63,896 bases of DNA, filler included, from Bonamia ostreae (GCA_040357525.1; 55 parts of 55 records of this genome joined end to end with filler, not necessarily neighbours in it), one strand, 5' to 3'. Shown: positions 4,198 through 63,896, counted from the whole stretch's first letter. Notes: generated by a model not told the origin, from the sequence alone. Made by a program: numbers and translations.

Positions 4198-4753
4198 GTA
4201 AGTTTATTAAATATTATCATAAACATGAGTGGTAGTTACATATTTGTAAACGTGTTTTCAAAAGCATTGATATTCACTCCTTTGAAATTGAAATTACTTC
4301 TAAACATCAATACATCAACCTGTCCTCTTAGCTTCTATTCAGTAACACATCAGTCACTTTCTGTCCTGAAACGATATAAATATTTTCAATTCAGACAGAA
4401 CGTATAATAAAATATCATCCATTTGCAACGTCGGTGAGAAATGTCATCTTTCATATGTCAATCATATAGTGATCCCATCATTCATGAAATAAATTGCGTT
4501 TATTTTTAAAAAGTGTTGTAAATGTTATCTAGAGGGTCTCAAATAGGGTGGAATGTATTAAACTTAAAATTCTTTCATATAATCCTAGACACANNNNNNN
4601 NNNNNNNNNNNNNNNNNNNNNNNNNNNNNNNNNNNNNTTAATTAATTAANNNNNNNNNNNNNNNNNNNNNNNNNNNNNNNNNNNNNNNNNNNNACTTATT
4701 ATTTGTTTTAGGTTTTATTTCTATAAAATATATAATAAACAAAATTATCAAAG

Positions 4754-5626
4754 ACACCGGAAAGAAAATTTAACGAAAAAGGACCTTTAGATTTAAGACT
4801 GGGGACATCGCTAAAAGCAAATTTGTGCACAACTTGCGGATTTGATTTGGCAGAATGTGTTGGTCATTTCGGTCATATCGATTTGCCATTACCAGTTTAT
4901 CACGTCGGATACTTTAAAACAGTTTTACCTTTTCACCAAAATCTGAAAAATGTAGACTCTTCGGATTTACTCCAGTATTTGCAAAACTTGCAGTCGAGTG
5001 CTTTTGACGCCGAAAGAAAAAGACAAATATAAAAAAGAGCTAAAGTTTTTCTGAATAAATATAAAAGGGAGAATAAGTTACTTGGAAAATATAAAGTGAG
5101 AAAACTGGTCAAGGAAATTTCTTCAAAATGCGCAAAAGTCGTTATTTGTTATTTTTGCGGTAACAAAAACGGTTCGGCCATAAAAGCGCCAAAATATTAT
5201 GGGATTCTGCATCGCAGAAACCGCCGCAAAAAACTTTCCGATAACGAAGTTAAAACATTTCAAACTTTTTAGATCGACTTGCAAGATTTCAAAAAATCAA
5301 TCGAAATGAATCCCGAGCTTCAAAAATATATTAAGAGTGGGACAGAAAATCCGAATCCGTTAGATATTTTAAATTTGTTTAAACGAGTGCCCTCTTACGA
5401 TTTGGAATATCTGAATATAGATGCGAACCGCCCGGAAGGTTTCGAGCTAAATTTTCGATTAGATTTGCTTATAAGAAAGCTCTTGGTGCCGCCGTCATGT
5501 ATGAGACCAACTGTGAATGTGGATGACTCAAGATCTCAAGAAGATGACTTGACTGTAAAGATTAGGGAGTTGGTCAAAATCAGCAATACAATAAAGCAAA
5601 ACATGATAAAAGGAAATATAACAGCT
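4754..5626 (+). CDS. RPC1: RNA polymerase III largest subunit, N-terminal fragment (protist)
   Basis: Spliced: [98 protein letters not shown] introns 4922-4955 (34 nt), 5045-5067 (23), 5249-5272 (24), 5439-5462 (24); the next intron opens near 5627. Confidence 0.92.
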
Positions 5627-5640
5627 GTTTTAACTTTTAG

Positions 5641-5766
5641 AAATTTTTTTGCGATTTTTTTAAATTGTCAAAACGATAAAATTGCAAATTTTTTTGCGAT
5701 TTTTTTAAAATGGTCAAAACGATAAAATTGCAAATTTTTGTAGTGATTTTTTAAAATTGCCAAAAC
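5641..5766. repeat. Intronic minisatellite, ~45-bp unit x ~2.8, truncated by contig end
   Basis: aaatttttttgcgatttttttaaattgtcaaaacgataaaattgc repeated right after the RPC1 donor. Confidence 0.85.
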
Positions 5767-5939
5767 NNNNNNNNNNNNNNNNNNNNNNNNNNNNNNNNNN
5801 NNNNNNNNNNTTAATTAATTAANNNNNNNNNNNNNNNNNNNNNNNNNNNNNNNNNNNNNNNNNNNNTTTTGACATCTTTAAAAATCTTGACATTTCATAA
5901 ATAAATTTTGGTTAAAAAAAGAACGAAATTCGAAAAAAA

Positions 5940-6938
5940 ATGAAGAACGCTGTAGAAATAATCCAAGGACCTCCCGGAACCGGCAAATCAACGATAATTT
6001 CAAGCATAATTAGAAACGATCTAGATTACAAAACATCGAGAAAAAAAGTCATTGTCACTTTTTTGAAAAACAAAGCGATGGAATCCATTATCGAAAAATT
6101 GACAAATCACAAAATTCTCGTTTTCGGAGCCCACAATAAACTTCCTCCGCTGTGTCTTCAACACGAGATTTATAGAAAAATCGATACTAATGAACAAATC
6201 AATAAACTCAGAAAAGAATTTAAACTTTTTCGGGAGAAAATTTTGGTCAAAATTTCAAATTTGGAAGAAAAGATGAACGAAGAAGAAACGGAACCACTAA
6301 AAAAAGAAATAAAGTCGACCAAAAAATCGTTGTCCGATCGAAAAGCAAATTTAGAAAGACGAGTCCAAATGGAAATTCGCCGCGAAATAGAGTCCGCGGA
6401 TGTCATTTTGTCAACCATTTCTTCCTTGGCAAAAATCATTAATGCCGCAAACAAATCCAGCGCCAATTTGAAAGTGCACACCGCGATTTTAGACGAAGCG
6501 GGATGTGTTGAAGAGATATCAACGTTCGCAATTTTCAACTTACTCCCCGATAATGTCATCTTGATCGGCGACCATTTGCAGTTGCGGCCGTTGTATTTTA
6601 ACCAAGAACAAAACTACGCGATGACATCGAAAAAGAGTTTAATGGAACGGGCCATTGAAGCAGGTTGCAAACATTCGACGTTGGACATTCAATACAGAAT
6701 GCACAAAGACATAATGACGTTAGTGTCAAATTTGTTTTATGGCGGGAAATTGAAGATGGGCGACATTGTGAGAGAAAGGAAAAATGGCGTGTTGTGGAAG
6801 GACGTGAACAGTATTGAAAAAGTTGAGAAAGATGGAATGTATTTCAACGATGGCGAGATTGAGGAGTGTGTTCGAATTTATGAAAGAGAAAGGAATTTTG
6901 ATTCGACGCAAACGATTATGATCATTGTTTTCGGATAA
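5940..6938 (+). CDS. Superfamily-1 helicase, Upf1/Sen1/DNA2-like family (partial)
   Basis: IQGPPGTGKS (Walker A), ILDEAG, IGDHLQL, SLMER, LDIQYRMH, FYGGKL and FNDGE motifs in the expected order. Confidence 0.9.
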   Translation: MKNAVEIIQGPPGTGKSTIISSIIRNDLDYKTSRKKVIVTFLKNKAMESIIEKLTNHKILVFGAHNKLPPLCLQHEIYRKIDTNEQINKLRKEFKLFREKILVKISNLEEKMNEEETEPLKKEIKSTKKSLSDRKANLERRVQMEIRREIESADVILSTISSLAKIINAANKSSANLKVHTAILDEAGCVEEISTFAIFNLLPDNVILIGDHLQLRPLYFNQEQNYAMTSKKSLMERAIEAGCKHSTLDIQYRMHKDIMTLVSNLFYGGKLKMGDIVRERKNGVLWKDVNSIEKVEKDGMYFNDGEIEECVRIYERERNFDSTQTIMIIVFG

Positions 6939-7040
6939 NNNNNNNNNNNNNNNNNNNNNNNNNNNNNNNNNNNNNNNNNNNNTTAATTAATTAANNNNNN
7001 NNNNNNNNNNNNNNNNNNNNNNNNNNNNNNNNNNNNNNTT

Positions 7041-7490
7041 TTGGTGCTCCTGTTTTTCTTCATCGTAAAAATATCTTTGCTGGCAGTTATTTTTATGGTC
7101 AGAAAGCGATATCAAAGAACTTATAACATCGTTATGATATATTTGTGCTCGTTTTATGTCGTTGGAATGTTTGTCAACGTAGTTTTTCGCATCCTAAAAA
7201 ATAAAAAAGTGGACGAGCACAGTTTTTTAGATTTCTTGTTGGATGTCATCGAAATGGTAGCTTTGTTGGTCCCTCTTTATATATCCTTTTACGCGTATTC
7301 AAAAAGCTTTAAAATATGTTTTGGAATGAAGAAAATATCGAACAATTTTGACGAAAAATTTTTCAAAAACGGTAAATTTTTCTAAATGTGTCAGTTTTGG
7401 CGTTAATTGTTATTTTTGTTTCTATTTCGAGATATTTACTGGATTTTAATGTTTTTTACAATTTTTGCATTTTTTTTAATGAAAAATTAA
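7041..7490 (+). CDS. Multi-pass membrane protein fragment (protist, hypothetical)
   Basis: Several hydrophobic segments; a 23-nt intron at 7372-7394 extends the frame into another hydrophobic segment. The 3' end is uncertain. Confidence 0.5.
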
Positions 7491-7793
7491 CCAAATTTGT
7501 CTTTTTTATTAAAATCTAATTATTTAGTTCTAATTTTTTTCATTAAATATTAAATTTTTATCCGTTAAAAATGATAATTTGTAATATTAAAATTTTAAAG
7601 AAAGGATTTGAATGTTTCATCTTGAAAGATCGAGTTGTTTACGCTTTAATCTCAATTTCTATAATCATTTTATATTATTCAATGATTTATTTTATAGTTT
7701 AAATAACTTTCATTTTTATGATGATTAAATCTGNNNNNNNNNNTCCAAATTTTTACGAAGAAAAAATCAACAAAAAGATTATTCTATTTAATC

Positions 7794-8110
7794 TTATTTT
7801 AGAGTTTTCAAGAAAGCTATAAGATCTCGTCTTTCAGCTGGTTTCTTCAGACCCGGAAAAACCATTTTAGTTCCCGGAACGACTTTTCTGGGATCTTTCA
7901 GATAAACGTTGAGCACTTTTGGTGTCCATTTTTTGTTATATTTCTTGTTGGCGTCTGTGTAAGAATAACCGGGCGATGTGCCACAGAGTCTGTCGACAAT
8001 ATTGAAAAGATTGGGACCGGTGGAATGGGGTTTTCCGTCTTCGTAAGTATGGCATTGTGCGCATCTTTTCGCATTTTTACAAACAAAACTTTTTTATAAA
8101 AATCTTTTTG
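7794..8110 (-). CDS. CYCS: Mitochondrial cytochrome c (5'-partial); missed by the ORF track
   Basis: KKIFIKK|CAQCHTYEDGKPHSTGPNLFNIVDRLCGTSPGYSYTDANKKYNKKWTPKVLNVYLKDPRKVVPGTKMVFPGLKKPAERRDLIAFLKTLK*. Has CXXCH, GPNL and GTKM; 25-nt intron at 8065-8089. Confidence 0.97.
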
Positions 8111-10552
8111 NNNNNNNNNNNNNNNNNNNNNNNNNNNNNNNNNNNNNNNNNNNNTTAATTAATTAANNNNNNNNNNNNNNNNNNNNNNNNNNNNNNNNNN
8201 NNNNNNNNNNAATTAGGTAAACCAGGTAGATGTACTTATATACACCTGTCTTTAGATATGTCTGTCTATACGTGATTCATCATTTTCGCGTTGTGGTCAT
8301 ATACTGTGGGGTCTTTGACTATCAATCTTGTCAGCTGATGCATCTTTCTCGGACAATTGCGTCGTGACCCGAGGATAGTGACCACCGTAGCCTCCTATGT
8401 CTACACATACTCAGATAGTGTTCATATTTTATATCGCATTCGGAGAGGCCTAGGATATCACACTTAATTGAGTGATGCATATTTGAGGGGAGGTGCATTG
8501 CGAACAAAAGAGGGTCGAAGTAGATTTATAGATATGCATAGTCAAAATGTGTCTGAATAATATCTTGCATACTAACTCAATCCAGCCTGGCCTGCTGATA
8601 AATCTTGCACATGTAGTTCAAGATGGGCATAGTATGTAATTAGTGAGCATTCTAGTAGCATTCCTTGTATGAATGATATTTTAATCAATATTCGTAGGAC
8701 CACTGATGCCCTTGCAAACCAGTCATATGTGTTGTTTGATTAAAAATGAAAAAAAAAATCTACACGTACATGTGATATTCCTTATTCATTTGATCAAATA
8801 TACTATATCAAGCATTACGATACTTTGATGCATGTGCTCTATTTGTATCATTTGAAATAATCTAAATAGTTACTTAAGAAGAAAACAATTACAGTCCTGT
8901 TTGTTATAATTTCTTCGATAACATTGTCATGAATGTTTGTTGAATAAAAAAATGTGTCAAAATGCGTCGATTTGGGCTAATATCAAAGATCTACTAATTC
9001 TATCGATAACAAAATGCATAGAACAGTCACTTCATGAATATGGTACATTGTGTAAATTAACGAAGTTTTATATACAAGAGAAATATTAAATGACAAGATA
9101 TCCATGGGCCTTAAAGCTCACCCAAGTCACCTTGTCCCTGCTATTGTTCACCTGCTGTGTTGTTAAACGATTTCTTTATCAGTCCTTATTCCCTATGAAA
9201 ATGTTGATCCAATTTTGTGCCCCCATCTTAGATCCCCAAAAATCTCACTGAAATGAACCCACATAACACAGAGATGCATCANNNNNNNNNNNNNNNNNNN
9301 NNNNNNNNNNNNNNNNNNNNNNNNNTTAATTAATTAANNNNNNNNNNNNNNNNNNNNNNNNNNNNNNNNNNNNNNNNNNNNAGTGTAATGAGGTACCTTA
9401 AATCGTCATGGGTGGAGCTGCCATGGCATAGCGCTAACACACTCCAATGCAATAATCCATATAAAAATTTTTTATTATAAGCTCGCTAATTCCTTCATTC
9501 GGACTCAAAGGATCGCAACTATTCGTGCTCAATTACATACAGTCGAAAGAACAATTTGAATGCAAATTCAAATCAAGTCGCCAATACCAATCCGTCTGAG
9601 AAAGACTATCTTAAAATGTTCCTAAAATCTATTATTATCTTAAAAATCTTTAGTTGTCATTTTGTGAATTCGCATCAACACCCATACACCCCGTGAATTA
9701 TATTTACATAGGATATCGAACATGGGTTGCATTCAATGTACAAAAAGGGTATGTCGTTTTACGATTTGGTGATATTTAGCCATATATCGGGGAAAGGTAT
9801 TCGAATCTGTAATCTTATCAATCTTATCATACATCCATTTACGATAGCTCCAAATTCTATTTGATGAAAAAGGGATATATCAGATTGATGGTTATGTTCC
9901 TATATAGTACCAAATACATAGAAATTTACAAAAACAGAGAATAATTTATCATACACCCCCGAAGGAGGTATATCAATCTTATTATTGAAGAGTTTGTTCG
10001 ACTTAAGAAAATTAAAACCTCCTAGCTGTAGAACTATATATATATAGCTCCCTGATTTAAAGAATCTTTCTGATGACCGCACCGAACCGTGACAAAGTTA
10101 TTATAACCTGTAAATGTCGAAAACAACACATTTTTCGCAATGTTTTGATCTAATATTTTGTATTTTGACACTCAACACTGCCTCAAGATTTATCGATTTT
10201 ACACAGAATTTCACAGCTTGCTTGTGTGGTAATTTGGGTTAAACGAATACCCTTTGACAACTTGGTCAAACAAATCAATGGAAATAAACCCAGTCTTCTT
10301 TGCTATGGTTGTTGTTACTACGAACTCGAACTTCTTTAATATATATACCGCCGCGGTAGTCTAGGCGCCGAGTAAATGCATAATTTTGAAACCCTCCACC
10401 GGCCTCGGTGACGTCTTTGTGTGTATGTGTGTGAAATTACATCGACTTAGATNNNNNNNNNNNNNNNNNNNNNNNNNNNNNNNNNNNNNNNNNNNNTTAA
10501 TTAATTAANNNNNNNNNNNNNNNNNNNNNNNNNNNNNNNNNNNNNNNNNNNN

Positions 10553-18851: not shown

Positions 18852-19455
18852 TTACTCATCCGAAAACCCGTCAAACGAAGCGTTCCCGACACCGCCAATT
18901 TGGCACACGCCGCAAACATTATTTTCCCCGCTTTCGACGCCATACAAACTTTTGCAATATCCACAAATCCGCCGCTCTTCAGACGACTCCAACGGAACCA
19001 ACTTTTTCGCATCCAATTCCAATCTTTCTCTTAAATCCATTTTAAGCTTTTCTGCGGACTTTCTGCTATCTTGTACTTCACTCAAAACTTGACTAACCGA
19101 TTCTAATGTTTTCCGAGTCGTTTGGGGGAGTTCAATATCGACTCCGAGTTCCAAACATCGCCTGCAAAGCACCGCAGTGGTTTTGTCGAAGCCGAGAGCT
19201 TTTCCCATATTTACTGCGTATAAAAGTCCTAAGAATGTGTGGATTGGTTTGAGGCCAAGTTGTGTCCAATAACATGACAATTCGAACTTAATTTACAAAT
19301 TTAGTTTTTTTAGTAAAAAAATGAATTGAAAATATTGTGATCAAAAATTTTAGAAAAAAAACTGCTCTCTTTTGGCTCTTGCAATCAGCTCTTTCTTTGC
19401 TACATCTCAGTGCCAAAATGTATTCTCTGCAGAAATTCAAAATTTCATTCGCTTT
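18852..19455 (-). CDS. COPA: Coatomer alpha subunit, C-terminal fragment (protist)
   Basis: KANEILNFCREYILALR..QKRA|FELSCYWTQLGLKPIHTFLGL..KTTAVLCRRCLELG..CGYC..CGVCQIGGVG matches the alpha-COP C-terminus pattern; 76-nt intron at 19287-19362. Confidence 0.85.
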
Positions 19456-19524
19456 CTAAATTGTAAAATTTATTTTTTCGTAATAAAATTTTTTAAAATC
19501 GAATTTCAGAAGATTAATTTTTAT

Positions 19525-19800
19525 AAAACAAAAAATTTATTGTTTTAACATTTCAAAAACAAAAAATTTATTGTTTTAACATTTCAAAAAAACAAAATTC
19601 AGTTTTAACATTTCAAAAACAAAATTTATTGTATTAACATTTCAAAAACAAAATCAAAATTCAGTTTTAACATTTCAAAAACAAAATTTATTGTTTTAAC
19701 ATTTCAAAAACAAAATTTATTGTTTTAACATTTCAAAAACAAAAACAAAATTCAGTTTTAACATTTCAAAAACAAAAAATTTATTGTTTTAACATTTCAA
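19525..19800. repeat. Intronic minisatellite, ~30-bp unit x ~9, in the COPA upstream intron
   Basis: ttttaacatttcaaaaacaaaa(aa)tttattg / ..ttcag variants running to the contig end. Confidence 0.9.
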
Positions 19801-19900: not shown

Positions 19901-20929
19901 TCTGTCATATGCAGTCTTCGCTTGTTTTCTCTGTTCTTTCCGCACTCTTTCAAAAGTGTCGTAATCTCCTTTATAATATTTTAGTTTTCTGTCCTCGATG
20001 TGGATAATATCTGTACAAACGTCGTTCAAAAATCTTTTACGCATTAAATTAAATTACTTTCTGACATGAGAAACAATGACCAGTGTTTTTTTGTATTCAT
20101 TCAAATAGTTTTTTAGCCATTCTACCGCAGGAAAATCCTTATTTTTTACATTTGTAACAACTTTTTTTAATATAAATCTGTAACATCGTTTTTAATATAA
20201 ATTTGTAACTTCGATTTTAATATAAATTTTTAACTTCGTTTTAATATAAATCTGTAACATTTCATTACACTAAAACAAAATTTCAAATTCTAAAAATTAA
20301 CGAGATGATTTGTAGGTTCGTCCAAGAGCAATAAGTCGGGTTCGGCAAAAAGCGCTAAATGGTAAAATAGAATGAACCGCAAGCCAACGAGACTCTCATC
20401 CTCCAACCTCCAGATAAATTGTTGGTTGGTTCTAATAATAAAAATCAGAAACCGTTCTGAGTTTCGGCGCTGAACTCCAAACCAGAAAGAATCGTCGCCG
20501 CTCTTGTAGTGGCTGAAGCGGCGTCAATGTATTCCAATCTGTCGTAGATTAGTCGGAGCCGTTCATTGATATCTTTTAACGACATTTCTGTTTTCGGACT
20601 TTCGCTGATGCCGCCGGAGATTCTTTTCTGTAAATCGATGAGCGACTTTTCTTCGCTGAGCAGATCTGTGCGCTCTTTGTCGGACAGCAAAACTGTTTCT
20701 AGAACGGTTTTGTCACTCGAGGGCATTTCTTGTTTAATGTGGAGAACGCGGAGGTGATTCGGGATTTCTGGTATTTTGTGGCTTGCTATGGTGCTCAGCA
20801 ATGTTGTTTTTCCGACTGAGTTGTTGTTTTAAAAACATCCGTTTTTGCCTACGAGGCCATATTTTCTTCCGTATGTTAATTGGATATCAGTTTCTGATAA
20901 TAATTCGGTACCTCCGCCAGGTCTAGCCA
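19901..20929 (-). CDS. ABCF3: ABC-F family ATPase (ABCF3/GCN20-like), first ABC domain (protist)
   Basis: [82 protein letters not shown]. Introns 20816-20836 (21), 20432-20452 (21), 20355-20377 (23), 20138-20301 (164, repeat-filled), 20034-20057 (24). Confidence 0.92.
20150..20262. repeat. ~25-bp minisatellite x ~4.5 inside a complete ABCF3 intron
   Basis: ttttaatataaatctgtaacatcg variants between defined donor and acceptor. Confidence 0.85.
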
Positions 20930-25727: not shown

Positions 25728-26592
25728 GAACAACACAACAGGAAACGGCCATCCGGAGACCACTCCAATTGCGACACTTTTTCCGTGCCCTTTATTTCCA
25801 AAGCGGTCGTTTCGTTCTGAGACGTTTCCAATGTTTCGTTCGTGTTGAAGAAGCACACTTTGGCGCCATCGCCCGCAGCTGCAAGGATATCGCCTTGAGG
25901 ACAGAATCGGGCGTCCCAAACATCGAAATCCAATTTTTGTGATATCCATTCGCAGCGAACGGCGATTCTTTTCATCTGAACGGAGTTTGTTATTGTCGAA
26001 ATGTTCTGTATTTCTGTACTTGCGAGGAAGTCCGCTTTTATGTTTCTTCGGATTTCTAAAATCAAATTAAATTTATATGAGCGTTGGTCGAAATTTTATT
26101 TTCGGTTTTTAGATTAAAATTTGTTTGACAAAAATTTTTCTTCGGATTTTTAAATCAAATTCCCATAAAAAATTCCATTTTTGAAAACTTTTAAAAATTT
26201 CATTTTTAAGATTTTCGGCCAAATCCGTCAATCCATTTCTCTCAAAAAAATTTTGCGGCGAATGAATAGTCATAAAAGTCAAATTCGACAGATCTTCGAA
26301 CCCGATATCAAAATCGTCATTTTTTGTTCTAAAAGGAGCGAAGAGAAAAGAAGGTTCTTCCTTTTGCATTCTGAAACCGGCTCGAGCCAAAATAAAACGG
26401 CCATCTTTGTCAGTCGGAAGTTCCAACATGGCGTCGCGTGGCCTTAATTTGCGTTGCAATTCTTCGAAGAAAGTGGGATTGATCGGGTCTGTTGTGTTGA
26501 TGAAAGGTTGTGGTAGCCTAAAAGTATCGTTGTTTTTAAAGAGAGGAAGAATATTTTGTTGGAGGTAATTTATCGCGTCTTTTTTTCTGTTC
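25728..26592 (-). CDS. WD40 protein, WDR26/GID7-like fragment (protist)
   Basis: DAINYLQQNILPL (CTLH-like), then WD repeats DVWDARFCPQGDILAAAG..VSQLEWSPDGRFLLCC; inferred 133-nt intron at 26056-26188. Confidence 0.65.
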
Positions 26593-26619
26593 TTTTTTTT
26601 ATATTTTGATGCGATTTTT

Positions 26620-27783: not shown

Positions 27784-27955
27784 TTTATCTTTCTCAATAT
27801 TATCTTTATTTTTTCTTTTCGCTTTATCTTTCTCAATATTATCTTTATTTTTTCTTTTCGCTTTATCTTTCTCAATATTATCTTTATTTTTTCTTTTCGC
27901 TTTATCTTTCTCAATATTATCTTTATTTTTTCTTTTCGCTTTATCTTTCTCAATA
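27784..27955. repeat. 39-bp perfect minisatellite x ~4.4
   Basis: tttatctttctcaatattatctttattttttcttttcgc; probably in the last intron of an upstream minus-strand gene (short terminal exon PMLGDNICDNYITQKG* at about 27690-27740). Confidence 0.9.
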
Positions 27956-30107: not shown

Positions 30108-31879
30108 GTAAATTTATCATCTACTTTTGTAGTTTATTTTTTTTCTTTCAAATGTCTTAAAAAATATACAATGCTATTCAGTGAACTTTGCGTTATGAAT
30201 AGCAATTGCTCTGTTGCCATTTTCCATGATGCACGTTAGCACATCATTGGAAATATGCCAACGCCATGTTCACTGAATAATCNNNNNNNNNNNNNNNNNN
30301 NNNNNNNNNNNNNNNNNNNNNNNNNNTTAATTAATTAANNNNNNNNNNNNNNNNNNNNNNNNNNNNNNNNNNNNNNNNNNNNATATGATCCACTTATTCA
30401 TTTAACGCGAGTAAGACAACTCCAGTTGACATAAACATTGCATCATGACGTCACATTTGGCTTCGATGTAACGCCAGTAAAATCCAATGTTCCGTTCTCA
30501 TACGTGGTTTTCTTACCTTCGGTGCGACCAAGTTTCGCTCGGTATAAAGTACTTGTAATAAATCGCTTCGGGGCGAGCAAATTGAAATATAAAAAGATAA
30601 AATGTACCTAGATTTCCTTGAAAAAAGCTTGGGAAATTTATAAACATTCCTAGCATCGTTGATACTTGACCAAAAAGCAGAGCCGTCAAATTCTGGGATT
30701 TTTTTGCACAATGATCGATTATACAACAGGAGAGTTCGTACTTTTCCCAAGCAATATTTACATATATTTGTATTTCCTCTCCTGGATTCACACAAAATGT
30801 TACTAAACGGTCCTCATCTTTCACTTGCACCACGATAAACTTTTAGACATAGGGACGATCATCCTATCAACATTATATCAGCACATAATACATGTGAAGA
30901 ATGTACACATGTATATAATATCAAAGAAAAATTAAAAAAAAATCACTTGACAAAATTTAACATATACAGCGTAACACAGTAGTAAATTTGTTTGAGAGAA
31001 AAATCGCTAATTCAAATTCCACATCACGTTGCACTTTTTAGATCATCTCCGTTAACATACTTCCGGAATTAAGTAAACGGCTGATCAGCTGTTTGAAATC
31101 GCTTTGCAAGATATAAAGAATCTTCACTCGTCTCATATTGTCATAACGTAAAATTTATCGATTAGGATGATCACTATCATAAAAATGAACTAGTATCATG
31201 GTTATTCTAATTATTAATAAAAATTTCCGTTTCATTGGAAGATCTTTACTGATTTAAAATAGACTTCTCTTAAAAAACAACATCATTTTTTTCGACAAAT
31301 TTACAAAATGCATCCATTGTGAAAATTTCGTCAAAATTTGACGATGCGTACTTACAAAAATGGAATAAATGCCAAAAAAAAAAAAAAAATAGGAATCTTC
31401 TTTCATTAACTGTTATATTTCTGTTTTAAGATCTTCCGTTTACATNNNNNNNNNNNNNNNNNNNNNNNNNNNNNNNNNNNNNNNNNNNNTTAATTAATTA
31501 ANNNNNNNNNNNNNNNNNNNNNNNNNNNNNNNNNNNNNNNNNNNNAAGATTTACAAAAACCTTCAATTTTCAAAATTCAATGGTAAGATATCGGGTACAT
31601 GTATATACATGTACATCTGTACAAATAATCAAATGAAAAACTTCTTCTGCTTCGATTAATATTGTGCTTTTTTGTGATTCAAATTTTTGTAACGATGTAC
31701 TAGAAATTGTTTATTGACACAACTGACCCAGAATTAAGCCTCGCGGGTTTCATAGTGTTCCATCTTCAAAAATGTTTTGGGAACTTTAATAAGTAACCTG
31801 TTTCTAAAATTGTAGAAAGAAACCCTAGAATTTCTTTTGGTAAAAGGAAATAGCNNNNNNNNNNTTTAACCACCAATTT

Positions 31880-32130
31880 AACAGTGTCCTGAACAGGTTT
31901 GTTCTAATGCGTTAATTCAGTGAATAAACAATCGACATTTTGCATAACAGTGTCCTGAACAGTGATAAGTCAGCTTAACAGTGAACAAACAATAGTCATT
32001 TCTATAACAGTCTCCTGAACAAACTTATTCTAGTATGTTAATTCAGTGAACAAACAATACACATTTTCTATATCAGTGTCCTGAACATTGTTAATTCAGC
32101 TTAGCAGTGAACAAACAATAGACATTTTTC
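31880..32130. repeat. Degenerate host minisatellite
   Basis: Recurring aacagtgtcctgaaca..gttaattcagtgaacaaacaat blocks. Confidence 0.65.
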
Positions 32131-33481
32131 CACGAAATTTCATTACTGCACGGTAGTGTTGATGTAATTTATTGTAAATAAATTGTTAAATCTTTTCATA
32201 GTCTATAATTCGATTTCGTTGGCATTTTGGGTCCCGAACGAGTCCCCAATTTTGTTATGGGTCCGGATTACCCTCGTACCAGCAAAGATCAATAACACAT
32301 TCAAAGACTATAAATGATATGCAAAAATGCCTTTATCTACATGTATTTTAGCATGTCAAATCAAATCTTTTAGTTATAGTAACAGCTGTAGATCGATCAA
32401 ATATTGGGACATAATTGTCATAATTAAACAAAACTGCCCAGTGCAAAATAGTTGATACACAAGCTATTATTTGATCAAGTTATCCCTTTAGAAGATCCCT
32501 TAAACCAAATACTCTGTGTGCAATGTGACCGGATGCTTTCACAGTGATCATTTAAGATTTGAAAATAACTGCATTAATTACTATGTAGGACAAGTTCTAT
32601 GGCTGAAANNNNNNNNNNNNNNNNNNNNNNNNNNNNNNNNNNNNNNNNNNNNTTAATTAATTAANNNNNNNNNNNNNNNNNNNNNNNNNNNNNNNNNNNN
32701 NNNNNNNNTTAAGATAAATAGAAACGCATACTATCCGAAAAACACATCTGTCTTAGGGTTTTTCCGTGATGTAAATCATTTGAAGATACACGAGATATAT
32801 ATTCATTTCATGGAAATACATAGGGAAGTCGTGGAGCTTTGATTACATTATGTAATTTCGTTGAAGTTTCAAAATACATTCAGTTCATAAGGTACGAGTG
32901 ACTATTAATGAATGGGAAAATTAATAATAAAAAGTGTTATAGGAATTCTGAACGTGAACAAACTGATTCACAAATGTGTTTAATATCCACTATTCACATT
33001 ACTATGAAATATAACATTGATATAAAATGCCTTTAGTTGATAAAAGATGAATACTGTAATGACATTTTTATTATCCTTAGTTGAAAATCATAAATTATTC
33101 AAACTTTACCGACGTATTATAATGTATATTATAAAGAATGCGTAATTAGGATTAATCATTACCGTTTTCATTAAAAAAAATCTAGCACGTCAAATGTTGC
33201 ATATGTAAAATTGAAAATGCATCTTTATTACTTTCCAAAAGATGAACTAAAACTGTAGAGATGCGCCGCGCATGAAAAATCACAGTTTATCCGATCCACG
33301 ACACTGTATATGTAAGAAATAAATTTCATTTTTGAAATAAAGCATTAGCTCTTCATTAAAGATGCAGGCGTGAAGCGTTGAAGTCCATACCTTCAGGTAT
33401 TTTCAAAGCTGACATTTATCTTTTATTTTTGCATTCTACTCCCATTTCTGTGAGATTTCCCAGCCATTAAAATAGACATAC

Positions 33482-33771
33482 TGTCGACTGGTGGTTGAGT
33501 CGATACCGCTGGGTCTGGCGTCTGATGTTGCGTAGATACCACGGGGTCTGGTGTCTGGTGTTGCGTAGATACCACGGGGTCTAACGTCTGGTGTTGGGTA
33601 GATACCACGGGGTCTGGCGTCTGGTGTTGCGTAGATACCACGGGGTTCTGTCGCCTTGTATTTGCGTAGATACCACGGGGTTTGGCGTCTGGTGTTGCGT
33701 AGATAAAAGTGGATTACTGTGTTCACTAGTCGAAGCTCGTCTGAGGAGTGGCGTCGAAATCTGACTAGGAC
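33482..33771 (-). CDS. Animal exon with a 33-bp coding tandem repeat (mucin-like PDPVVSTQHQT x ~6)
   Basis: 33-bp repeat at about 33505-33705; open S/T/P-rich frame ending at a gtatgt donor. Confidence 0.55.
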
Positions 33772-45484: not shown

Positions 45485-45868
45485 GTCCATCGCCTGCAGT
45501 ATTTACAGCTGCTATGGTGATATTGTGGAAAGTTCCTGAAATATAAAGATAACTTTTAAGCCACATGACATTTTATGATAACCATATCTCTTAACCATTA
45601 TGCTAAAATTAATCATCTTAAGGAACCTATTTGAATATTAATTAAGGAACCTATTTGAATATTAATTTCTTACCTTTTTGAAAAGTTTGAAACGATAGGG
45701 TATTTTGAAAGGCATTTACTAAATATGTCTGAACCGATCCTTGATCTTGTGAGATTGTTAATTTGTAATGGAGTATATCTCCATTAGTACACATCGGTTC
45801 CACCCATTTAACATCAATGCTAACTGTGGTAACTTCTGTGACTGCAAAAGATCTTACTTTCCCAGGCT
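45485..45868 (-). CDS. Two animal exons encoding a fibronectin type III domain (45674-45868, 45485-45535)
   Basis: PGKVRSFAVTEVTTVSIDVKWVEPMCTNGDILHYKLTI..|GTFHNITIAAVNTAGDG with canonical sites. Confidence 0.8.
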
Positions 45869-47461
45869 CTGTAATTTAAAAAAATCATCTTATATATAGC
45901 TTAGACATGCTCTAAGAACAAGATAAACTCAACTACAGCACATTTAGATAGGTTATATTTTTTCAACAACGAAATCCAATCACCATGACCATGGGGGGCC
46001 CCCCCCCCCCCACCAGACAACATTGTGGTGGGGTGGGGGTGTGGGATGGTGGGGGGGTTGTGAGACAGGGGTGAGGGGGGGGGTGGTTGTTTGTGNNNNN
46101 NNNNNATAATCACCACATAACCACCAACACCCCACAATTTTTTAGGTTAATTTTTTTCCAAACCCCCATCCACACCCAACGAACATTACCCCCCCCCCCC
46201 CCCCAAAACAATAAAAATATGGTCGCATGAAAATTAATGACTGCTGCGAACTTAAATCAAACAATGAGAAGTCGCCTTATCTATTTAGTTACAGAGTGGA
46301 AAAACAGCATCTATGTCACCACTCATCTTGAAGAGTAACGTAATGTTTGATATCAACATTAATAAGGACCATTGAAGGAAGACAATTATTGTGTTTACTG
46401 ACTGAATGGAGCATGTTTAATAAAATTCAAATGTAAAAGTGAAAGTAGCCGATTTGGAGGATAAAAAAGTAAGAAGACTACAACATATTCTGAATTTTAC
46501 AGTGGCTGGTATAGGACAGGTGGAAGAAAAAAAATTCAAAATTCNNNNNNNNNNNNNNNNNNNNNNNNNNNNNNNNNNNNNNNNNNNNTTAATTAATTAA
46601 NNNNNNNNNNNNNNNNNNNNNNNNNNNNNNNNNNNNNNNNNNNNTCACGGGCACCTTACTCATCTGGAACTCTAGCAACTGTAGGTAATGTGTCAACACC
46701 TGACTGATCCTGCAAGATGTACTGGTAATTAACACATAGGAATTCCCACTTTTGTGGATAAATAAGGAACATGCTTGGGGGATTGAGGTTGGTCATTAAT
46801 ACTATTCGTAGGGCTAATATAAGAAGTGTTTCCCCCAATTAAGGTACCACCCCATTACTGCTGAAGGCTCTAGGGTATGGTGCACTAACCATGCTGGGAT
46901 AACTAACCTGCTTGTCCAATATAACTGGCCGTGTTGGCGTAGGGCAACTTTCTACTTCACCTACAGGCAAGATATCGATCCCAGTCTGAATTTATGTATG
47001 AAACCCTCAAGTCACCATGAGTTACCTACATTCTCAGAACATCCCGCTACATGCAACTGCTTATAGCCATATTATCAGCTACTTACAACAGATAACCGGT
47101 CAGCTCGATCTAGTTGGGCCTCTAAAATTGAGAATCTCTCCTCCAGTGACAGTCTGCTTATCCCGGTACCCTGGAATACCATTGCTACCTGGGGACCCCA
47201 CATCCCCTACTTGGGTCCCCGCCAAGCTCCCCTGTCTGACTGCCTTACCCCCCACCCCCTGGATGCCCGTCACCTAACCATCTTTTTCGAGTAGAATACC
47301 ACAACATTGGAATTCCTGCCTGGCCACAAACAAGCGTAAACAAGACAGTGTATCAACAATTACATCTAATCAACTAATTAAACTAATAGAAATTCCTACA
47401 TTTCAAAATAGTGGCCATGCAGTCCCCTCCAGTCAATGATTCTCGGTGCAGGTGGGCAAAA

Positions 47462-49361: not shown

Positions 49362-49815
49362 ATGGAATTTGTTTATTTTCCTAAAAAGTAGAAATTGCTC
49401 GATCTAAAAAAACATTCGCGTCCAATAACTTGTATAAAATTCAACCGAGAAGGCGATCTCCTCTTCAGCGCTTCAATGGATTTATTAGAAAACAACATCC
49501 TTCTGTGGAACCCCAAAAATGGCGAATTGGTTGGTGAGTATAAAGGCCATTTAGGTGTTGTAAAGAGCATCGACGTGAATTATTATTCGACTCTTTTGAT
49601 TTCGTCGGGTTCCGACAAAACCGTCCGTTTTTGGAAAGTGGAGACCGGCGAAGAAATATTGAGTATGGCGCATCTATCGATGATGACATGTTGCCGTTGG
49701 TCTAACAGCGAAAAATATATCGCCTGTGTTCAAGAATCGCTTAGTGATATCAAATCTTGCATTTTTGTGTATCGAATTAGCGATGAATTGAGACTTGATA
49801 GAAATCCAAAAAATC
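49362..49815 (+). CDS. EIF3I: Translation initiation factor 3 subunit i (WD40), N-terminal fragment
   Basis: MEF|KLLDLKKHSRPITCIKFNREGDLLFSAS..NGELVGEYKGHLGVV..SSGSDKTVRFWKVETG; 21-nt intron at 49371-49391; next donor inferred at 49816. Confidence 0.88.
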
Positions 49816-49844
49816 GTATTTATAATATCAAAAATATGTATTTC

Positions 49845-49990
49845 AATAAAAATAAAAATCTTTTTAAAAACAAAAAATGAAAAAATAAAAATCTTTTTTT
49901 CAAGAAATAAAAAATGAAAAAATAAAAATCTTTTTTCAAGAAACAAAAAATGAAAAAATAAAAATCATTTTTTCAAGAAACAAAAAATTA
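49845..49990. repeat. ~36-bp intronic minisatellite x ~4
   Basis: aaaaataaaaatcttttttcaagaaacaaaaaatg variants. Confidence 0.85.
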
Positions 49991-55965: not shown

Positions 55966-56779
55966 ATGGCGACATATCCTTACTTTAATTTGATTGACGA
56001 GCACGGGAAAATAACGTTTCGCCTTATAAAATTTAAGCAAGCGAAAAGAAGATTTTGAACGCTTTCTGAAGGAATCCAACGCATTTTCAGAAGAAAATTT
56101 TTTCGTTGTATCCGTGATGGTTAAAAACTTAATTTTGTAAGGGCGGTCAAAGCGGAGGCAAAAGTACTTTGCTCAATATTCTGTTTGAAACCGAGTTCCC
56201 TGTATTGCAGATGGGACAAAGAAAAGCAACCACAAAAGGTGTAATGATCTCGTTTGCAAGAAATCGTTTCAACAATACATAAATAGTCGAAAAAAACCTG
56301 ATCGTTCTCGATCTAGAAGGTTCTGACAGTACGGAAAAAACCGAATCGGAAAGCGAAACTTTTTCGAGAAAAAGTGCCTTGTTCGCATTGGCCGTTTCCG
56401 AAATTCTCATCGTCAACATTTGGTCTCATGACGTCGGTTAGCCAAATTTTATAAATCAAGGAAAAAGATCGGCGATGAATCTTTCGATTTTGCGGTCCAT
56501 TTTCGAAGTCAATCTTAAACTTACGGCGTCGGAAACGGTAAACAAAACAACGATCCTCTTCGTTCTTAGAGATTACGATGCAAAGCTTTTCGGTCCGCTT
56601 TCTCAGATAGAAAAAATTGTAACTGGCAATTTAGAAAATATTTGGAAATTGCTCGATAAACCTTCGCAATACCAATCCACGGATTTGAACAAGTTGTTCA
56701 AATTCCGTTTTTTTGGGCTCCCTCACAAAGAATATAAATTAGACAACTTTTTAAAAAAAGCTTATCAATTAAAAGGACG
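55966..56779 (+). CDS. SEY1: SEY1/RHD3 ER-fusion GTPase, N-terminal GTPase domain (protist)
   Basis: [69 protein letters not shown]. Introns 56016-56037 (22), 56120-56141 (22), 56266-56286 (21), 56437-56460 (24). Confidence 0.95.
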
Positions 56780-56803
56780 GTTCGTTTTATTTGCATTTTT
56801 AAT

Positions 56804-56962
56804 GTTCAAAAATTAAAAATTTGCAAAACTTTTTATCGAAAAACAAAATTTTTCGTGTTCAAAAATTAAAAATTTGCAAAACTTTTTATCGAAAAACAAA
56901 ATTTTTCGTGTTCAAAAATTAAAAATTTGCAAAACTTTTTATCGAAAAACAAAATTTTTCGT
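56804..56962. repeat. 53-bp perfect minisatellite x3 in a SEY1 intron (donor at 56780)
   Basis: gttcaaaaattaaaaatttgcaaaactttttatcgaaaaacaaaatttttcgt x3 to the contig end. Confidence 0.92.
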
Positions 56963-57062
56963 NNNNNNNNNNNNNNNNNNNNNNNNNNNNNNNNNNNNNN
57001 NNNNNNTTAATTAATTAANNNNNNNNNNNNNNNNNNNNNNNNNNNNNNNNNNNNNNNNNNNN

Positions 57063-58118
57063 AAATCTGACAAGCAATTTTGTATCGATTTAAATTTAGC
57101 TAATTCTGTTGTTGTTTCGATTTCAACATCGTTTTGATCACTAACTGTTGTTTCGATTTCATCATCGTTTTGATCATAATCTGTTGTTTCGATTTCAATC
57201 AATAAATCGCAAATTTGTTGCTTCAAGTAAATGGGGCATTTTTCACCAATATTAAAGACTTTTTGTTCCAAAAGATGTCCCAGACTTTCCCTGACTCCAT
57301 CACCCGAAAGGGTTCTTGCATTTAAATTACGCAGTTCTTCTCTAATTTCCAAATCCTGTATTTTATCCAATTCAGTTTTAAGTTTCTCCTGTTGTTTAGT
57401 AAAATCTTCACTGACCGGATACAATGTCTCAAGTATGTAGTAAACCGTGCACATGTCTTTTTTGGGTGTAGTCTCGTCTGGTTCTAATTCTTCTAGAATA
57501 TTTCTGATGAGATTAAATGTATCTGTCGGGGAATATTTCTGATAAGAATATTTTCTACGTGCCATAAAAGTTATTTCTAAAGTTTTACATGCCATAATAG
57601 CTCTTGGGTCTTTACAATTCTTGGCATCAATTTCCTTTGAGGGCAACAGCGCAAATGCTAATTCATGCATTGTTTCAACGATTGTACGGTTTACCTTTTT
57701 ATCAATTTTTAAAAAGCGAAAAATAAAAATTAGTGAATCCGGTTCTCATATGAATAATGAGGCACTCGGAACGAAATTTATTATTTAGTTTGGACAAATT
57801 TAAAGTCTTTTGGTTTGATTAAAATATTGAACCGCGTTATATGCAACCATTCCTGGTCTTTTCATTCCTGACATATTAAATAGAATATCTATAGATTTCC
57901 GCAAGTGCAAATTACTAACATATTTTTTTAAAGTGATAGCTTTATCTCGACTTTCGTCACCATGTTTTAAACGACCCAAAGTAAAAAAATACAAAGCAGA
58001 TGTTGAATTAAAAAGGTCTCTGAAGATAGATATACACACTGATAATCCGAGAAATTCAATTTTTTGTAACAACGGTATTAATTTTTCTATCTCAAAATGT
58101 GAATTTTCTAGCATTTTA
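57063..58118 (-). CDS. Hypothetical protein fragment (protist); the two track ORFs are probably one gene
   Basis: A 26-nt intron at 57807-57832 and a putative 28-nt GTT..GAG intron restore one frame; contains a 36-bp coding duplication (DQNDxEIETT). Confidence 0.5.
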
Positions 58119-58904: not shown

Positions 58905-59160
58905 TCAAATATTTCTGTCAAACAATTTTTTCATATAAGTTTGGAGAATTTTGTCGTCTGTAGAAAACGGGAGCGAATTTGTTGTGTTGATATTGCTGTT
59001 GTCGAACTGTTTCTGGATCATCGGATTGTCGTCATATTCAATTCTGTGCAACTGCTCTTTTATCGCTAAATTTTTAAATTAAAATTTTACCGTCGTAATT
59101 TTTCGAATGGTCAATAAAATCTGCGTTATAGCTTTTTGGAAGCTGATTTGATATTTCTCT
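58905..59160 (-). CDS. C-terminal exons of a hypothetical protist gene
   Basis: Open frame across a 25-nt intron at 59066-59090, ending KLFDRNI*. Confidence 0.5.
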
Positions 59161-59448
59161 ATTTTTTGATAAAATTGGACCGATATTTATTTTTTTAACG
59201 AAAAAAAATTTTGAAAAAAATCAAATTTTAAGAAAAATAAAATTTCGTCAAAATAAAAATTTTGGTCAAAAAAANNNNNNNNNNNNNNNNNNNNNNNNNN
59301 NNNNNNNNNNNNNNNNNNTTAATTAATTAANNNNNNNNNNNNNNNNNNNNNNNNNNNNNNNNNNNNNNNNNNNNCTCTATTGTGAGTGAGAATTCAATGA
59401 AAATTTTCTCGCCGTGTTTATTATTTTTAGGAATTCAAAGTGCTTTTA

Positions 59449-59931
59449 TTAATTGCATAAATTTACCATAAGATTGTTTAGAACAAATTTAGAGTTTTCT
59501 TTCAAAATGTTGAACATTAAATAAATTGCGCAATAATATTGGTTTTCATGATACATTTTCTCATCAAATAAAGAAACTAGGTATTTTAGAAAATTAGAGT
59601 TAGCAAAAGTTCCATTTTTTTTATAATTGATCATTATGATTAATTTTGTGGTAGTTTTCAGGATTTTTTTGCTTTTAAATAAAATAATGATCTTCAATAG
59701 TCCTATGTTTTCATAGTCTTTTATTTTATCCTTAAAATATGACACAGAAACTTTTTGTTCACACAGTAACAGATATTCGACAATACCGAGTAGTTCGTCA
59801 ACATACCTTTCTTTATCCGTGTTACTTTGAATTAATTCAATGTAGGACCCTAAATATATTTTTTTCTTTTTAATTTCTTTTAAAGGGTTAATCAAAATTT
59901 GCGATGAAAGAGATATTTTATAATTTATCAT
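59449..59931 (-). CDS. Hypothetical AT-rich ORF, origin unclear
   Basis: 160 codons open in very AT-rich DNA; no recognisable motif. Confidence 0.35.
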   Translation of the reverse strand: MINYKISLSSQILINPLKEIKKKKIYLGSYIELIQSNTDKERYVDELLGIVEYLLLCEQKVSVSYFKDKIKDYENIGLLKIIILFKSKKILKTTTKLIIMINYKKNGTFANSNFLKYLVSLFDEKMYHENQYYCAIYLMFNILKENSKFVLNNLMVNLCN

Positions 59932-60530
59932 TTAATGTGGTAGCTTAAATGAAAATATTTTATAAATAAATATTAATAAAATATATTAAACTTTTTGCAT
60001 AAAATGATAAAAAGAAGTAATAATTTGATAAATTTTACGTATATAATTCCACCCTGCAATTAGTAAGCAATATTTGATTGCCAATAAATTTATTGTCCAT
60101 TATTTAGAAGACTGGTCAGTGAGGGAAATCTCATGACTCTAATGGAGGCACGTTTCCATGGAGTGTGTGACTTAGATAGAGCGGTTTAAACTTTAATTCA
60201 GAAATTCAAAGGCATATACGAACCTTAAAATCAAAAAAAATAACCTATCTTTGAATGAAACTTAGGAGAAAATCTGTAGGAAAAATAACATATAAAGCGA
60301 GTAGGAAAATCGAGGAAGAGATATACAGTAAGGATGAAACACAAATTAGAATATTAATAGAAATGCGGGAATGAGTAATTTTAATTTTAGAAATTATATA
60401 AAAATTAATATTATAATTGATATCATGTATNNNNNNNNNNNNNNNNNNNNNNNNNNNNNNNNNNNNNNNNNNNNTTAATTAATTAANNNNNNNNNNNNNN
60501 NNNNNNNNNNNNNNNNNNNNNNNNNNNNNN

Positions 60531-60636
60531 CTACGTTTGGCACGTCTTGGCATGCAGAATAACCTGGTGATAGATTCATGAAATTCTGACACCATGTCTG
60601 TGCTTCTGGTCTGGTCATTATTACCGTAGTTGATCT
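60531..60636 (-). CDS. Animal exon, possibly a VWD/EGF-domain-containing protein
   Basis: ttttgcag acceptor; EAQTWCQNFMNLSPGYSACQDVPNV. Confidence 0.4.
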
Positions 60637-63069
60637 CTGCAAAATGAATTTGTTAATGCAAATAAAGTAACGTTCAGCATAGATGTTCATTATCAAATAT
60701 GTGTAGGAAGACATAGTTTACATCAAAGAACGACAATGTATACTTTAGAAAGCAAACGCTCGCCCCAAGAATGTTATAAGCATTGTCTTTTTAATTTCCT
60801 GTTTGGGCTTCATTTGATAAACAGAAGTTTATTGATAAAACAAAGTCATTTATGAATAAACTGATTTGGAAATGTTATAAAATATAAATATTATCAGAAC
60901 TGTCTTGGTGTTTTTCAAACATTATTGAATGTTAGAATATTGAATGCAGTAGCTTAACAAAATATGCATTTATGGACTGTTCCGCATGATTTACTCGGGT
61001 ATGTTAAGACAGGTCATACTTTATTAATACACGAAAATTACACAGTCTTTAGAATTTGCACTTCATAAAGGGAGGGAGCTACTAACATATTAAACATTTT
61101 TGGGTGTTTACCTTAGAATATTTTGTATCATAAGAACATGACAAATATTAGATCCCGTATAACGTCATTAAATGGCTGTTATAAAAGATCGAATATGAAA
61201 CGAAAAATATAACACTACCCCAGGATTTGATCAGTATTTTAATTGATTATATTGTTAAAACGATTCTAGCAACACTCATCTATATTACGTTAGTTTATTG
61301 CATTTCTTTTGTTGTATAAAAAGGCTACAAAAGTATGCGACATAGTGTTATATTTTGGCGTTTTATTTACAGTTGATGAAAGAGGAAAATCGGTCGACTG
61401 CGAAGAGGAATGTTCTTTGTTGAAATAATTGTCAGTGAGTGAAATCATTATGCTTTCACAATATTGATAAATTTCGAGTATATTCCTTATATATTTCTTG
61501 GCATCTATTTTACATATTGCTGAATCATAGTTGTTGATATTTACACAGCACAATCAACAAAATCTTCGCATGTGTCATCGTCAATCNNNNNNNNNNNNNN
61601 NNNNNNNNNNNNNNNNNNNNNNNNNNNNNNTTAATTAATTAANNNNNNNNNNNNNNNNNNNNNNNNNNNNNNNNNNNNNNNNNNNNTTTGTTTCAAATAT
61701 TAACTACTACTGTATCCATCCATCTATTTAACATCTTGTTTACTAGTGACCCATGCCATATGACATCGGCTAGGATTATGGTAGTCACCCGGGGTCGTGG
61801 ATAAGTGATATTTTTGTCAAGTATAATGATTTTTGTTCCCGTTTCCTTTTAGTTTTGTCACTGCGGCCTTCACCTGATTTTGCTTGAATGCGGACCTTTC
61901 CGCACTGTGAAGTAATTAGCTATCTTTATACCAAGCTTTCGCTTTTATTGTTTCTTGTTGATTTGAGCAAGATAAATAAATTGGATGTAAATGCAGAAGG
62001 TGAACTAAGGGCAGACAGGATGATTCCTACATGTTGCTAAATCTTTCTATCTGCAATGAGACACGTGAAAACTTTTAAATCATGCAATTTGCACAGCTGT
62101 TAAAAGATGCAACGAGAAACGGAAATCAGCATACAAAACATTCAAGGAATGAACAAGGACAATCAAACTGTACCGAGTAATGATGGAGAGAGAATTATTT
62201 AGAAAAAATTGTGAAATTATGACCCCTTGCGTCAGGGAATCTGGCGCTAGTACGGGAGTTGAAACCTTTATTAAAATCATGCAATTTTGAATATCTATTT
62301 ACTCAGAAGTCACTTGGGGATCTGGGATAGAATACGTCATATGTACTGAATGGGGCGGTCCTATGAATGAAACCGCAAAAAAGGAAATCCCGTGCCACAG
62401 CTGCAAGAATAGACAGATGACAGACAAAAAGATGACCAGAAAAGCTCAATTGAGGGATTCAACCTTGGTGTTTGGTCTTGTAGAATATATACTACTAAAA
62501 CGGATTCAACTCTGGGATTTACCGCTATACTAGGTATGTTGTCAATCAAGCAATGGTTTTGACCAACATGTGCACACTAAATTGATATCCCACCTCATAC
62601 AAGGTGTAAAGGGCAACATAATAACAAGAGCGGTACAGTATATTGTTTAAAATTCACCTTTGCCACCTGACTTTGCATGTATTCGAGCATGCACATGATC
62701 TATTGAGTATGTACTGATTCCAGAATTCATGTACATGATATNNNNNNNNNNNNNNNNNNNNNNNNNNNNNNNNNNNNNNNNNNNNTTAATTAATTAANNN
62801 NNNNNNNNNNNNNNNNNNNNNNNNNNNNNNNNNNNNNNNNNTTTCGTATCCAAAATATGCGAAATGTTCAATTCCACTCCCTTCTTCCTTTGTTAGTTGA
62901 TTTTTATCCCTTTTTGGAGATATTAAACTAAAAAATAATCAAACGCTCTGTTTTGTTATTTTTCTGCGGGAAATTTGTTAATTTTTTTTATTGGATTCTG
63001 TGAGCCCGCGCAAATATTAATTATTATGAGCTATTTTTATGAGCAATTTTAATTTGCGATATTTACATT

Positions 63070-63567
63070 TTTGAATGAAGAAGGTACGAAGAGTTCGGGA
63101 AGACAAGGCGATTTTTAACTCGTTTATTAATTAAAATTTGAAATGTCATTTATTTAAAATTTTTACATGTTGTTTGCCGTCGTCCAAATTGTTTAAGTAG
63201 ATTTTTATGTAGTGTACTTTGAACAAACCGATGAGTTTAAATGTGGCGAAAACATAAATTTTCTGTACAACTGTTTCGATGCCGTTTTCCGTTAAAATTA
63301 ATTTTGGTTTTCGATTTATTATTTTTAATGTCATTTTTATTTCCTTAAACGCGTTGAACCTTTTAAAATTAAGCGATTTGAAATTTTAGAGATCTTTTAA
63401 TTAAATCAACGTAACTAAAAATTCGTTATTTCTTTGCGGCTCAGTTTTAATACCAAAAGCAAGTTTTTTGTGAAGATAACTAACTGCTTCTGTGTTGTCT
63501 TTATTATTATTTTTCTTCAATCTTTCAACATCGGGTTCGTGCAATCTTTTTTTATTTTCAATTTGTT
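63070..63567 (-). CDS. Hypothetical protist gene fragment
   Basis: Track ORFs joined by a 22-nt intron at 63394-63415; the upstream acceptor at 63568 lies inside the repeat array. Confidence 0.5.
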
Positions 63568-63896
63568 CTTTAATTATTATTTTCAAATTTGACCAAAATT
63601 TGTTCTTTAATTATTATTATTCAAATTTGACCAAAATTTGATCTTTAATTATTATTTTCAAATTTGATCTTTAATTATTATTTTAAATTTGATCTTTAAT
63701 TATTATTCAAATTTGATCAAAATTTGTTCTTTAATTATTATTATTCAAATTTGACCAAAATTTGATCTTTAATTATTATTTTCAAATTTGATCTTTAATT
63801 ATTATTTTAAATTTGATCTTTAATTATTATTCAAATTTGATCAAAATTTGTTCTTTAATTATTATTATTCAAATTTGACCAAAATTTGATCTTTAA
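63560..63896. repeat. Compound intronic minisatellite with a 124-bp higher-order period
   Basis: Sub-units built on aatttg(t/a)tctttaattattatt; tgttctttaattattattattc recurs at 63601, 63725 and 63849. Confidence 0.9.

Follow-up and report, generated by a model that had tools for sequence, protein, structure and literature searches.

AT-rich minisatellite arrays peculiar to their loci, and probable in-place lengthening of a few introns, in a protist-like genome with tiny introns

Introners, which generate introns and lie dispersed in the genomes of certain algae, fungi and dinoflagellates, are present as near-identical copies at many loci. Tiny introns are described in ciliates, where they measure 21-29 nt in Nyctotherus ovalis and about 25 nt in Paramecium (PMC2633312, PMC5014332). 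A peak of introns of minimal length followed by a flat tail of longer ones is also known within single genomes (PMC5014332). Introns of mouse pseudoautosomal genes are filled with minisatellites, which the part of the account used here ascribes to unequal crossover and which differ in size between strains (PMC13050634). The DNA considered below is a window (the whole stretch analysed) of 63,896 nucleotides, filler included, from an assembly record of Bonamia ostreae (GCA_040357525.1), and the elements in question are tandem arrays in and near the genes of a protist-like organism represented in it. A sequence-only reading of the window had proposed two intron classes in this protist, micro-introns and introns inflated by minisatellites. 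The account favoured here, with moderate confidence, is that a eukaryote with mostly tiny introns has had a few of its introns lengthened in place by AT-rich arrays, each specific to its locus, and that these arrays stop the assembly. The literature yielded no description of such arrays in a tiny-intron organism, which is weak evidence of absence.

Under this scheme about 18 of the 55 contigs in the window would come from an AT-rich, CpG-rich microbial eukaryote that uses TAA as a standard stop and has mostly 21-24-nt introns with GTT donors. Much longer introns, which would be a minority (164 nt in one case, upwards of 140 to upwards of 350 nt in others), would consist largely of tandem arrays. 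Intron sizes were taken from six homology-supported genes in which coordinates were fixed and the spliced frames checked to be open. Twelve of the 16 complete introns are 21-24 nt long, so that the expected background of about 20 nt was borne out; the others are 34, 51, 76 and 164 nt. Donors are GTT in 15 of the 16 and GTA in one, acceptors are AAG (8), TAG (7) and CAG (1), and a stop codon is present in seven of the eight tiny introns that are a multiple of three nucleotides long. To our knowledge the predominance of GTT donors is unusual among eukaryotes; Entamoeba has a GTTTGT donor. The lengths peak sharply and then trail off over a long range instead of falling into two distinct classes, the gap being filled by complete, array-free introns of 34, 51 and 76 nt. 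Gene models built by script on open frames only were over-fitted, their introns scattering between 15 and 40 nt or reaching 192 nt, and were used just where homology or visual inspection bore them out.

The 21-24-nt mode and the TAA stop resemble those of Paramecium and Nyctotherus (PMC2633312, PMC5014332). Unlike these ciliates, which the portions of the two sources drawn on here describe with GTA donors and ultra-short introns only, the protist-like genes prefer GTT and have a tail reaching beyond 350 nt; GTA...TAG boundaries combined with exclusively ultra-short introns are not what is found, and a length scan of the window for GTA..TAG segments gave no peak. Neither telomeres nor gene-sized chromosomes nor a kinship with ciliates came to light, the closest proteins being 40% identical for eIF3i and 50-51% for ABCF, with mixed taxa. 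Genomes with a bimodal length distribution and both intron- and exon-definition splicing share the peak and tail, the peak here being exceptionally short (PMC5014332). How one spliceosome handles both classes had been raised as a puzzle, which carries little weight because mixed intron lengths in one genome are common knowledge, to judge from the relevant part of that source (PMC5014332).

The one complete case of an array within an intron comes from an ABC-F gene on the minus strand. Its complete intron of 164 nt (20138-20301, GTTAAT..ATAAG) separates LLLDEPTNHL from DFPAVEWL, and excision joins the two. Removing this intron together with four tiny ones, at 20816-20836 (21 nt), 20432-20452 (21 nt), 20355-20377 (23 nt) and 20034-20057 (24 nt), gives an open frame of 263 aa in which the P-loop/Walker A, the signature motif and Walker B are intact and an SH..FLN motif is restored; ABC_tran_Xtn and ABC-F names are among the database hits. 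Contigs of four public runs (X1-X4) were compared with the ABCF contig. One from X3, at a depth of 128, joins 20136 to 20301 and so skips precisely the 164 nt of this intron, with CT..AC as the ends on the plus strand. The joined form occurs in X3 only and in none of the DNA runs X1, X2 and X4; X1 and X2 come from two further studies and span the intron without the joint. The claim that this is a complete, true GT..AG intron is upheld: its coding-strand ends are GT and AG, as in spliceosomal GT-AG introns, and its removal leaves a conserved open frame. Long introns of this kind would be excised whole, through the outermost GT and AG.

Within the ABCF intron a leader of 43 nt is followed by four units of 24-26 nt, all starting with GTTA, and by a terminal unit of 21 nt (GTTAC..AAG) that supplies the real acceptor. 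Tandem Repeats Finder, with which arrays were located across the window, places this array at 20164-20260 (25 bp x 3.9); the 25-bp unit proposed earlier is therefore present at a copy number below the proposed 4.5. An X2 contig returns from 20208 to 20165 and X1 has a variant unit of 65 nt, with no full-length allele among them, which is consistent with differences in copy number or unit between samples. As a separate observation, X1 and X2, which belong to different studies, share an 81-nt contig of depth about 4 that connects the array end at 20240 to 20740; this join skips 499 nt, has TT..TG ends and may be a variant or a second locus. An RNA structure pairing the ABCF splice sites was considered and dropped (z-score -1.24; 26 of 200 shuffles fold equally well). 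A 24-nt ABCF exon pattern searched against genome contigs gave five loci, each matching over only 28-41 nt at the conserved motif; they have the look of bacterial ABC genes with no relation to this one.

All eight arrays listed in the sequence-only reading were recovered at the coordinates given there and with nearly the same unit lengths. They are minisatellites in the usual sense of a head-to-tail unit of 10-100 bp: periods are 25-53 bp, copy numbers 2.8-9 and matches 80-100%. The arrays of the long introns are very AT-rich (GC 11-21%), and some have higher-order periods (29/62/91 bp in COPA, 37/73 bp in eIF3i and 26/38/86/124 bp in contig c55). A blastn-short comparison of 15 arrays with all contigs found nothing in common between different contigs beyond AT-rich words 11-21 nt in length (E no lower than 8e-4), so the statement that no two units are alike holds within the window. 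Avoidance of AG on the sense strand was also considered as a property of the arrays and set aside: COPA and SEY1 contain no AG, but ABCF, c55 and c23 contain 8-11, and the copies are not independent.

Units of 25-53 bp that differ from locus to locus would most likely have been generated inside the intron itself, through slippage during replication or through unequal exchange, and insertion of a shared mobile element would not be their source. Duplication in place fits the locus-specific units, the higher-order periods, the backward-running X2 contig and the X1 variant unit. Introners, too, leave part of a genome's introns longer and younger than the others; unlike introners, the present loci have no sequence in common within the 19 kb compared, and no near-identical copies occur in introns of different genes of the window. 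As in mouse pseudoautosomal genes, for which a like origin is given, tandem arrays occupy introns (PMC13050634). In the mouse account, as far as it was drawn on, a few families (mo-2 and mo-2-like) are found again and again, both within introns and in intergenic DNA, whereas each unit here is different, and the present arrays are AT-rich and set against a background of tiny introns (PMC13050634). The earlier proposal of local tandem duplication in place of a dispersed element keeps its first half as the likely origin; the high depth of the ABCF array, returned to below, permits a dispersed component.

Judged by homology, four further arrays sit inside genes together with that of ABCF. N-terminal exons of RPC1 (4739-5626, plus strand), where two open reading frames (ORFs) match Pfam RNA_pol_Rpb1_1, read as a spliced frame open over 261 aa across tiny introns at 4922-4955 (34 nt), 5045-5067 (23 nt), 5249-5272 (24 nt) and 5439-5462 (24 nt). 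A long intron would start at 5627 with the donor GTTTTA and continue to the contig end at 5766, with an array of 46 bp x 2.8 at 5641-5766. The homology covers residues 200-306 of the 1460 residues of yeast RPC1. In COPA, on the minus strand, the 3' part of a long intron occupies 19456-19800, its array (19525-19800; 29 bp) reaching the contig end and its putative acceptor TTTAG ending at 19456; 68 nt lie between the array edge at 19525 and the acceptor G. The exons after it match COPI_C (positions 266-393 out of 405) and terminate with TAA, one further exon lies upstream, and splicing of an intron of 76 nt (19287-19362, minus strand), in which Tandem Repeats Finder detects no array, gives an open frame of 175 aa.

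The eIF3i gene (plus strand; Pfam EIF3I positions 4-142 of 324) opens at ATG 49362 and has a 21-nt intron after the third codon (49371-49391), past which the spliced frame remains open. Its putative long intron starts at 49816 with GTATTT and runs to 50020; this donor is repeated at 49838, inside a 22-bp duplication (49807-49848), and the array (49848-49988; 37 bp x 3.9) stops 32 nt short of the contig end. SEY1/RHD3 (plus strand; RHD3_GTPase positions 47-94 and 94-202 of 245) has tiny introns at 56016-56037 (22 nt), 56120-56141 (22 nt), 56266-56286 (21 nt) and 56437-56460 (24 nt), whose removal opens the frame and restores the P-loop. Its candidate long intron (56784-56962) has a GTTTTA donor with GT at 56780 or 56784, and an array of 53 bp x 3.2 (56795-56962) that reaches the contig end. 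Because homology stops mid-protein beside all four of these arrays, the genes must extend past them.

A sixth intragenic array is perhaps present in contig c55, where a compound array (63552-63896; periods 26/38/86/124) lies beside a gene with a DUF4833 domain and is bounded by a putative acceptor at 63546 (63546-63896, minus strand). Two ORFs match DUF4833 positions 31-71 and 70-135, positions 1-30 are absent, and the match begins directly past the array; an intron of 51 nt at 63360-63410 (minus strand) contains no tandem array. The array of contig c23 (26600-26791, minus strand; 26 bp x 6.6-6.8) occupies a contig end and has an orphan ORF, then a WD40 exon, downstream of it; it is a candidate intron or 5' flank. 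That of c24 (27784-27955; 39 bp x 4.4 with 100% matches), likewise at a contig end, sits upstream of ATG 27635 at a distance of 149 nt. This ATG begins a minus-strand ORF whose N-terminus is hydrophobic, and the array is probably intergenic or 5' flank. The idea that arrays adjoin splice sites accordingly stands for the donors of RPC1, SEY1 and eIF3i, is looser for the acceptors of COPA and c55, and is not supported for c24 and c23.

The 55 contigs of the window, 1055-1074 bp each and sorted by descending size, are separated by spacers of N44, a 12-base linker and N44, and eight have an internal N10; the window is a thin size slice of a fragmented short-read assembly. Contigs were divided by principal component analysis of trinucleotides; the dividing line, chosen by eye, was a first-axis value above 0.2, and three contigs of GC 0.44 were excluded. 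The eight contigs on which eukaryotic genes and tiny introns can be recognised all fall at the same end of that axis. The division gives 18 protist-like contigs (set A), with a CpG observed/expected ratio of 1.52 (1.10-1.93 per contig) and TpA at 0.60, and 34 others (set B), with CpG at 0.80 and TpG and CpA at 1.2. At least two organisms are therefore present, the protist-like one making up roughly a third of the window; about 19 kb of its sequence, all in contigs of about 1 kb, was open to comparison. Set B is probably from a different, CpG-depleted genome.

To be scored as array-terminated, a contig end had to have a terminal 30-mer of which 25 or more of the 30 positions recurred no farther than 300 nt away; 30-mers from the contig interior reach 21/30 at their 99th percentile. 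Six of the 110 ends qualify (c5, c17, c23, c24, c49 and c55), all of them in set A (6 of 18 contigs versus 0 of 34 in set B, Fisher p=0.0009). Contigs would end at arrays because short-read graph assembly cannot cross near-identical units. Since only protist-like contigs end in this way, the restriction to 1-kb contigs does not wholly account for the pattern, a possibility that the sequence-only reading itself had raised. Its statement that contigs break in arrays applies to these six, the eIF3i array falling short of its contig end, and arrays account for just 6 of the 36 ends of set A, too few to explain the fragmentation as a whole. All six ends (5766, 19800, 26791, 27955, 56962 and 63896) are right-hand ends, with genes on either strand (binomial p=0.03); this bias most likely reflects how an assembler orients a contig that meets a loop.

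Several results weigh against in-place lengthening of introns as the explanation. Only one array-bearing intron is complete, and the far exon of the others was never seen. The intermediate introns of the homology-supported genes have no array, and script-only models include candidate repeat-free introns of 50-138 nt, two of them of 133 and 138 nt. The identification of X3 as RNA is a guess. The contigs listed for it retain the tiny introns 20355-20377 and 20812-20832, and an unjoined edge of the 164-nt intron is also present; among the runs listed with the ABCF contig, none is recorded as RNA. In X1 and X2 the depth of the ABCF array is about 4-17 times that of its flanks, from which there may be more copies at this place or copies elsewhere in the genome. 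Contigs of about 1 kb give no genome-wide frequency of arrays, and in this slice array-bearing introns of the tail are visible mainly since they break contigs. Finally, an array upstream of a start codon (c24) and one that is unclassifiable (c23) mean that arrays are not confined to introns.

These last two arrays also suit the strongest competitor, which we consider unlikely: that the arrays are non-coding minisatellites of a general kind in this genome, bearing no particular relation to introns, and that they appear intronic because classification is possible just for those beside conserved genes and because loci broken by repeats are over-sampled in a slice of 1-kb contigs. It draws further strength from the scarcity of Pfam matches in the scan of 300 of the 412 ORFs of at least 45 aa (the 112 shortest were left out; most of the 300 had no match) and from the 19 kb, which give no intergenic baseline. 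It sits poorly with five, perhaps six, arrays inside genes, with three that start 11-32 nt past a donor of the genome's GTT/GTA type, and with the other organism's contigs of equal size, which never end in arrays.

A very improbable explanation is that the terminal arrays are artefacts, graph loops unrolled by the assembler at contig ends. The shared right-hand position would be expected from it, and three arrays, each about 170 nt in length, are perfect to 97-100%. The ABCF array, however, is internal to its contig and recurs in contigs of two further studies, which have variants of their own; divergence between copies and higher-order structure are seen in several of the terminal arrays, and an artefact would not pick one organism's contigs. 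That the inserts are germline-limited sequences of a ciliate, eliminated from DNA rather than spliced from RNA, is hardly credible, for despite the Nyctotherus-like 21-24-nt introns and TAA stop (PMC2633312, in the part drawn on) and the chance that X3 may actually be DNA, the inserts end in GT..AG with the donor type of the tiny introns, have no pointer repeat (one base is ambiguous at the ABCF joint) and are kept without a joined form in DNA runs X1 and X2, and telomere repeats are found on no window contig.

Within the framework of introns lengthened in place, a quite doubtful refinement is that they grow by iterating a module of tiny-intron size with ends resembling splice sites. The GTTA-starting units of ABCF and the duplicated donor of eIF3i point to copying of segments that bear splice sites. 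If such growth took place, a spliceosome tuned to about 21-24 nt would have to skip many internal donor- and acceptor-like sites. Loose ends of X3 contigs separately imply GT..AG skips on the plus strand at 19956-19984 (29 nt), 19961-19984 (24 nt) and 20085-20108 (24 nt), antisense to ABCF coding exons, the skipped segments resembling typical tiny introns. They may represent antisense RNA spliced at chance sites, and to go by the 24-nt skips, chance GT-N20-AG stretches on such RNA seem to be cut by the same machinery.

Overall the observations of the sequence-only reading were largely, though not fully, confirmed and its interpretation partly supported: inflation of long introns by local minisatellites is supported at five or six loci, and two discrete classes, intron specificity and the cause of fragmentation are not established. 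The interest is modest because mixed short and long introns and intronic tandem repeats are both familiar. Should the pattern be genome-wide, it would offer a test case for a spliceosome that removes mostly 21-24-nt introns and also faces introns ten times longer and rich in donor-like motifs, and for introns that lengthen through local duplication and not through mobile elements. A practical use is that it flags contigs of a eukaryote and of a second, CpG-poor organism in a record whose ORF calls follow prokaryotic rules. For the c23 ORF (26112-26429, minus strand), the sole match is an identical protein record of 106 aa (NCBI, UniRef) that comes from one contig of 1064 bp, equal in length to c23; solved structures and 1.84 billion representative proteins contain no homologue except itself, and the eukaryotic contig appears to have been annotated by a simple ATG-to-stop call.

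Searches with the COPA exon against metagenome contigs and with the RPC1 exon against genome contigs returned no longer contig or relative, and the SEY1 unit as an exact pattern had no match in the metagenome contigs searched. No Rfam family or tRNA was found on the window contigs. The genome behind set B may be animal-like (for example contigs 2348-3420, 31546-32608 and 45485-46544), and fn3 exon-like ORFs were detected by Pfam on two set B contigs. One set B contig has an array of 61/126 bp at 31879-32128 directly past an N10 gap, with no ORF above 50 aa nearby. Another has a GC-rich repeat of 33 bp x 6.7 at 33481-33705 that is open in several minus-strand frames and is possibly a coding repeat of 11 residues. 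The end of c51 (59193-59274, minus strand) carries a weak, low-complexity array of 17 bp that failed the terminal-repeat test, and downstream of it on the minus strand a candidate GT..AG element of 25 nt was read by eye. A 36-bp x 2.5 repeat at 57110-57198 (minus strand) lies within a long ORF, where it encodes an acidic repeat of 12 residues and is thus coding, not intronic.

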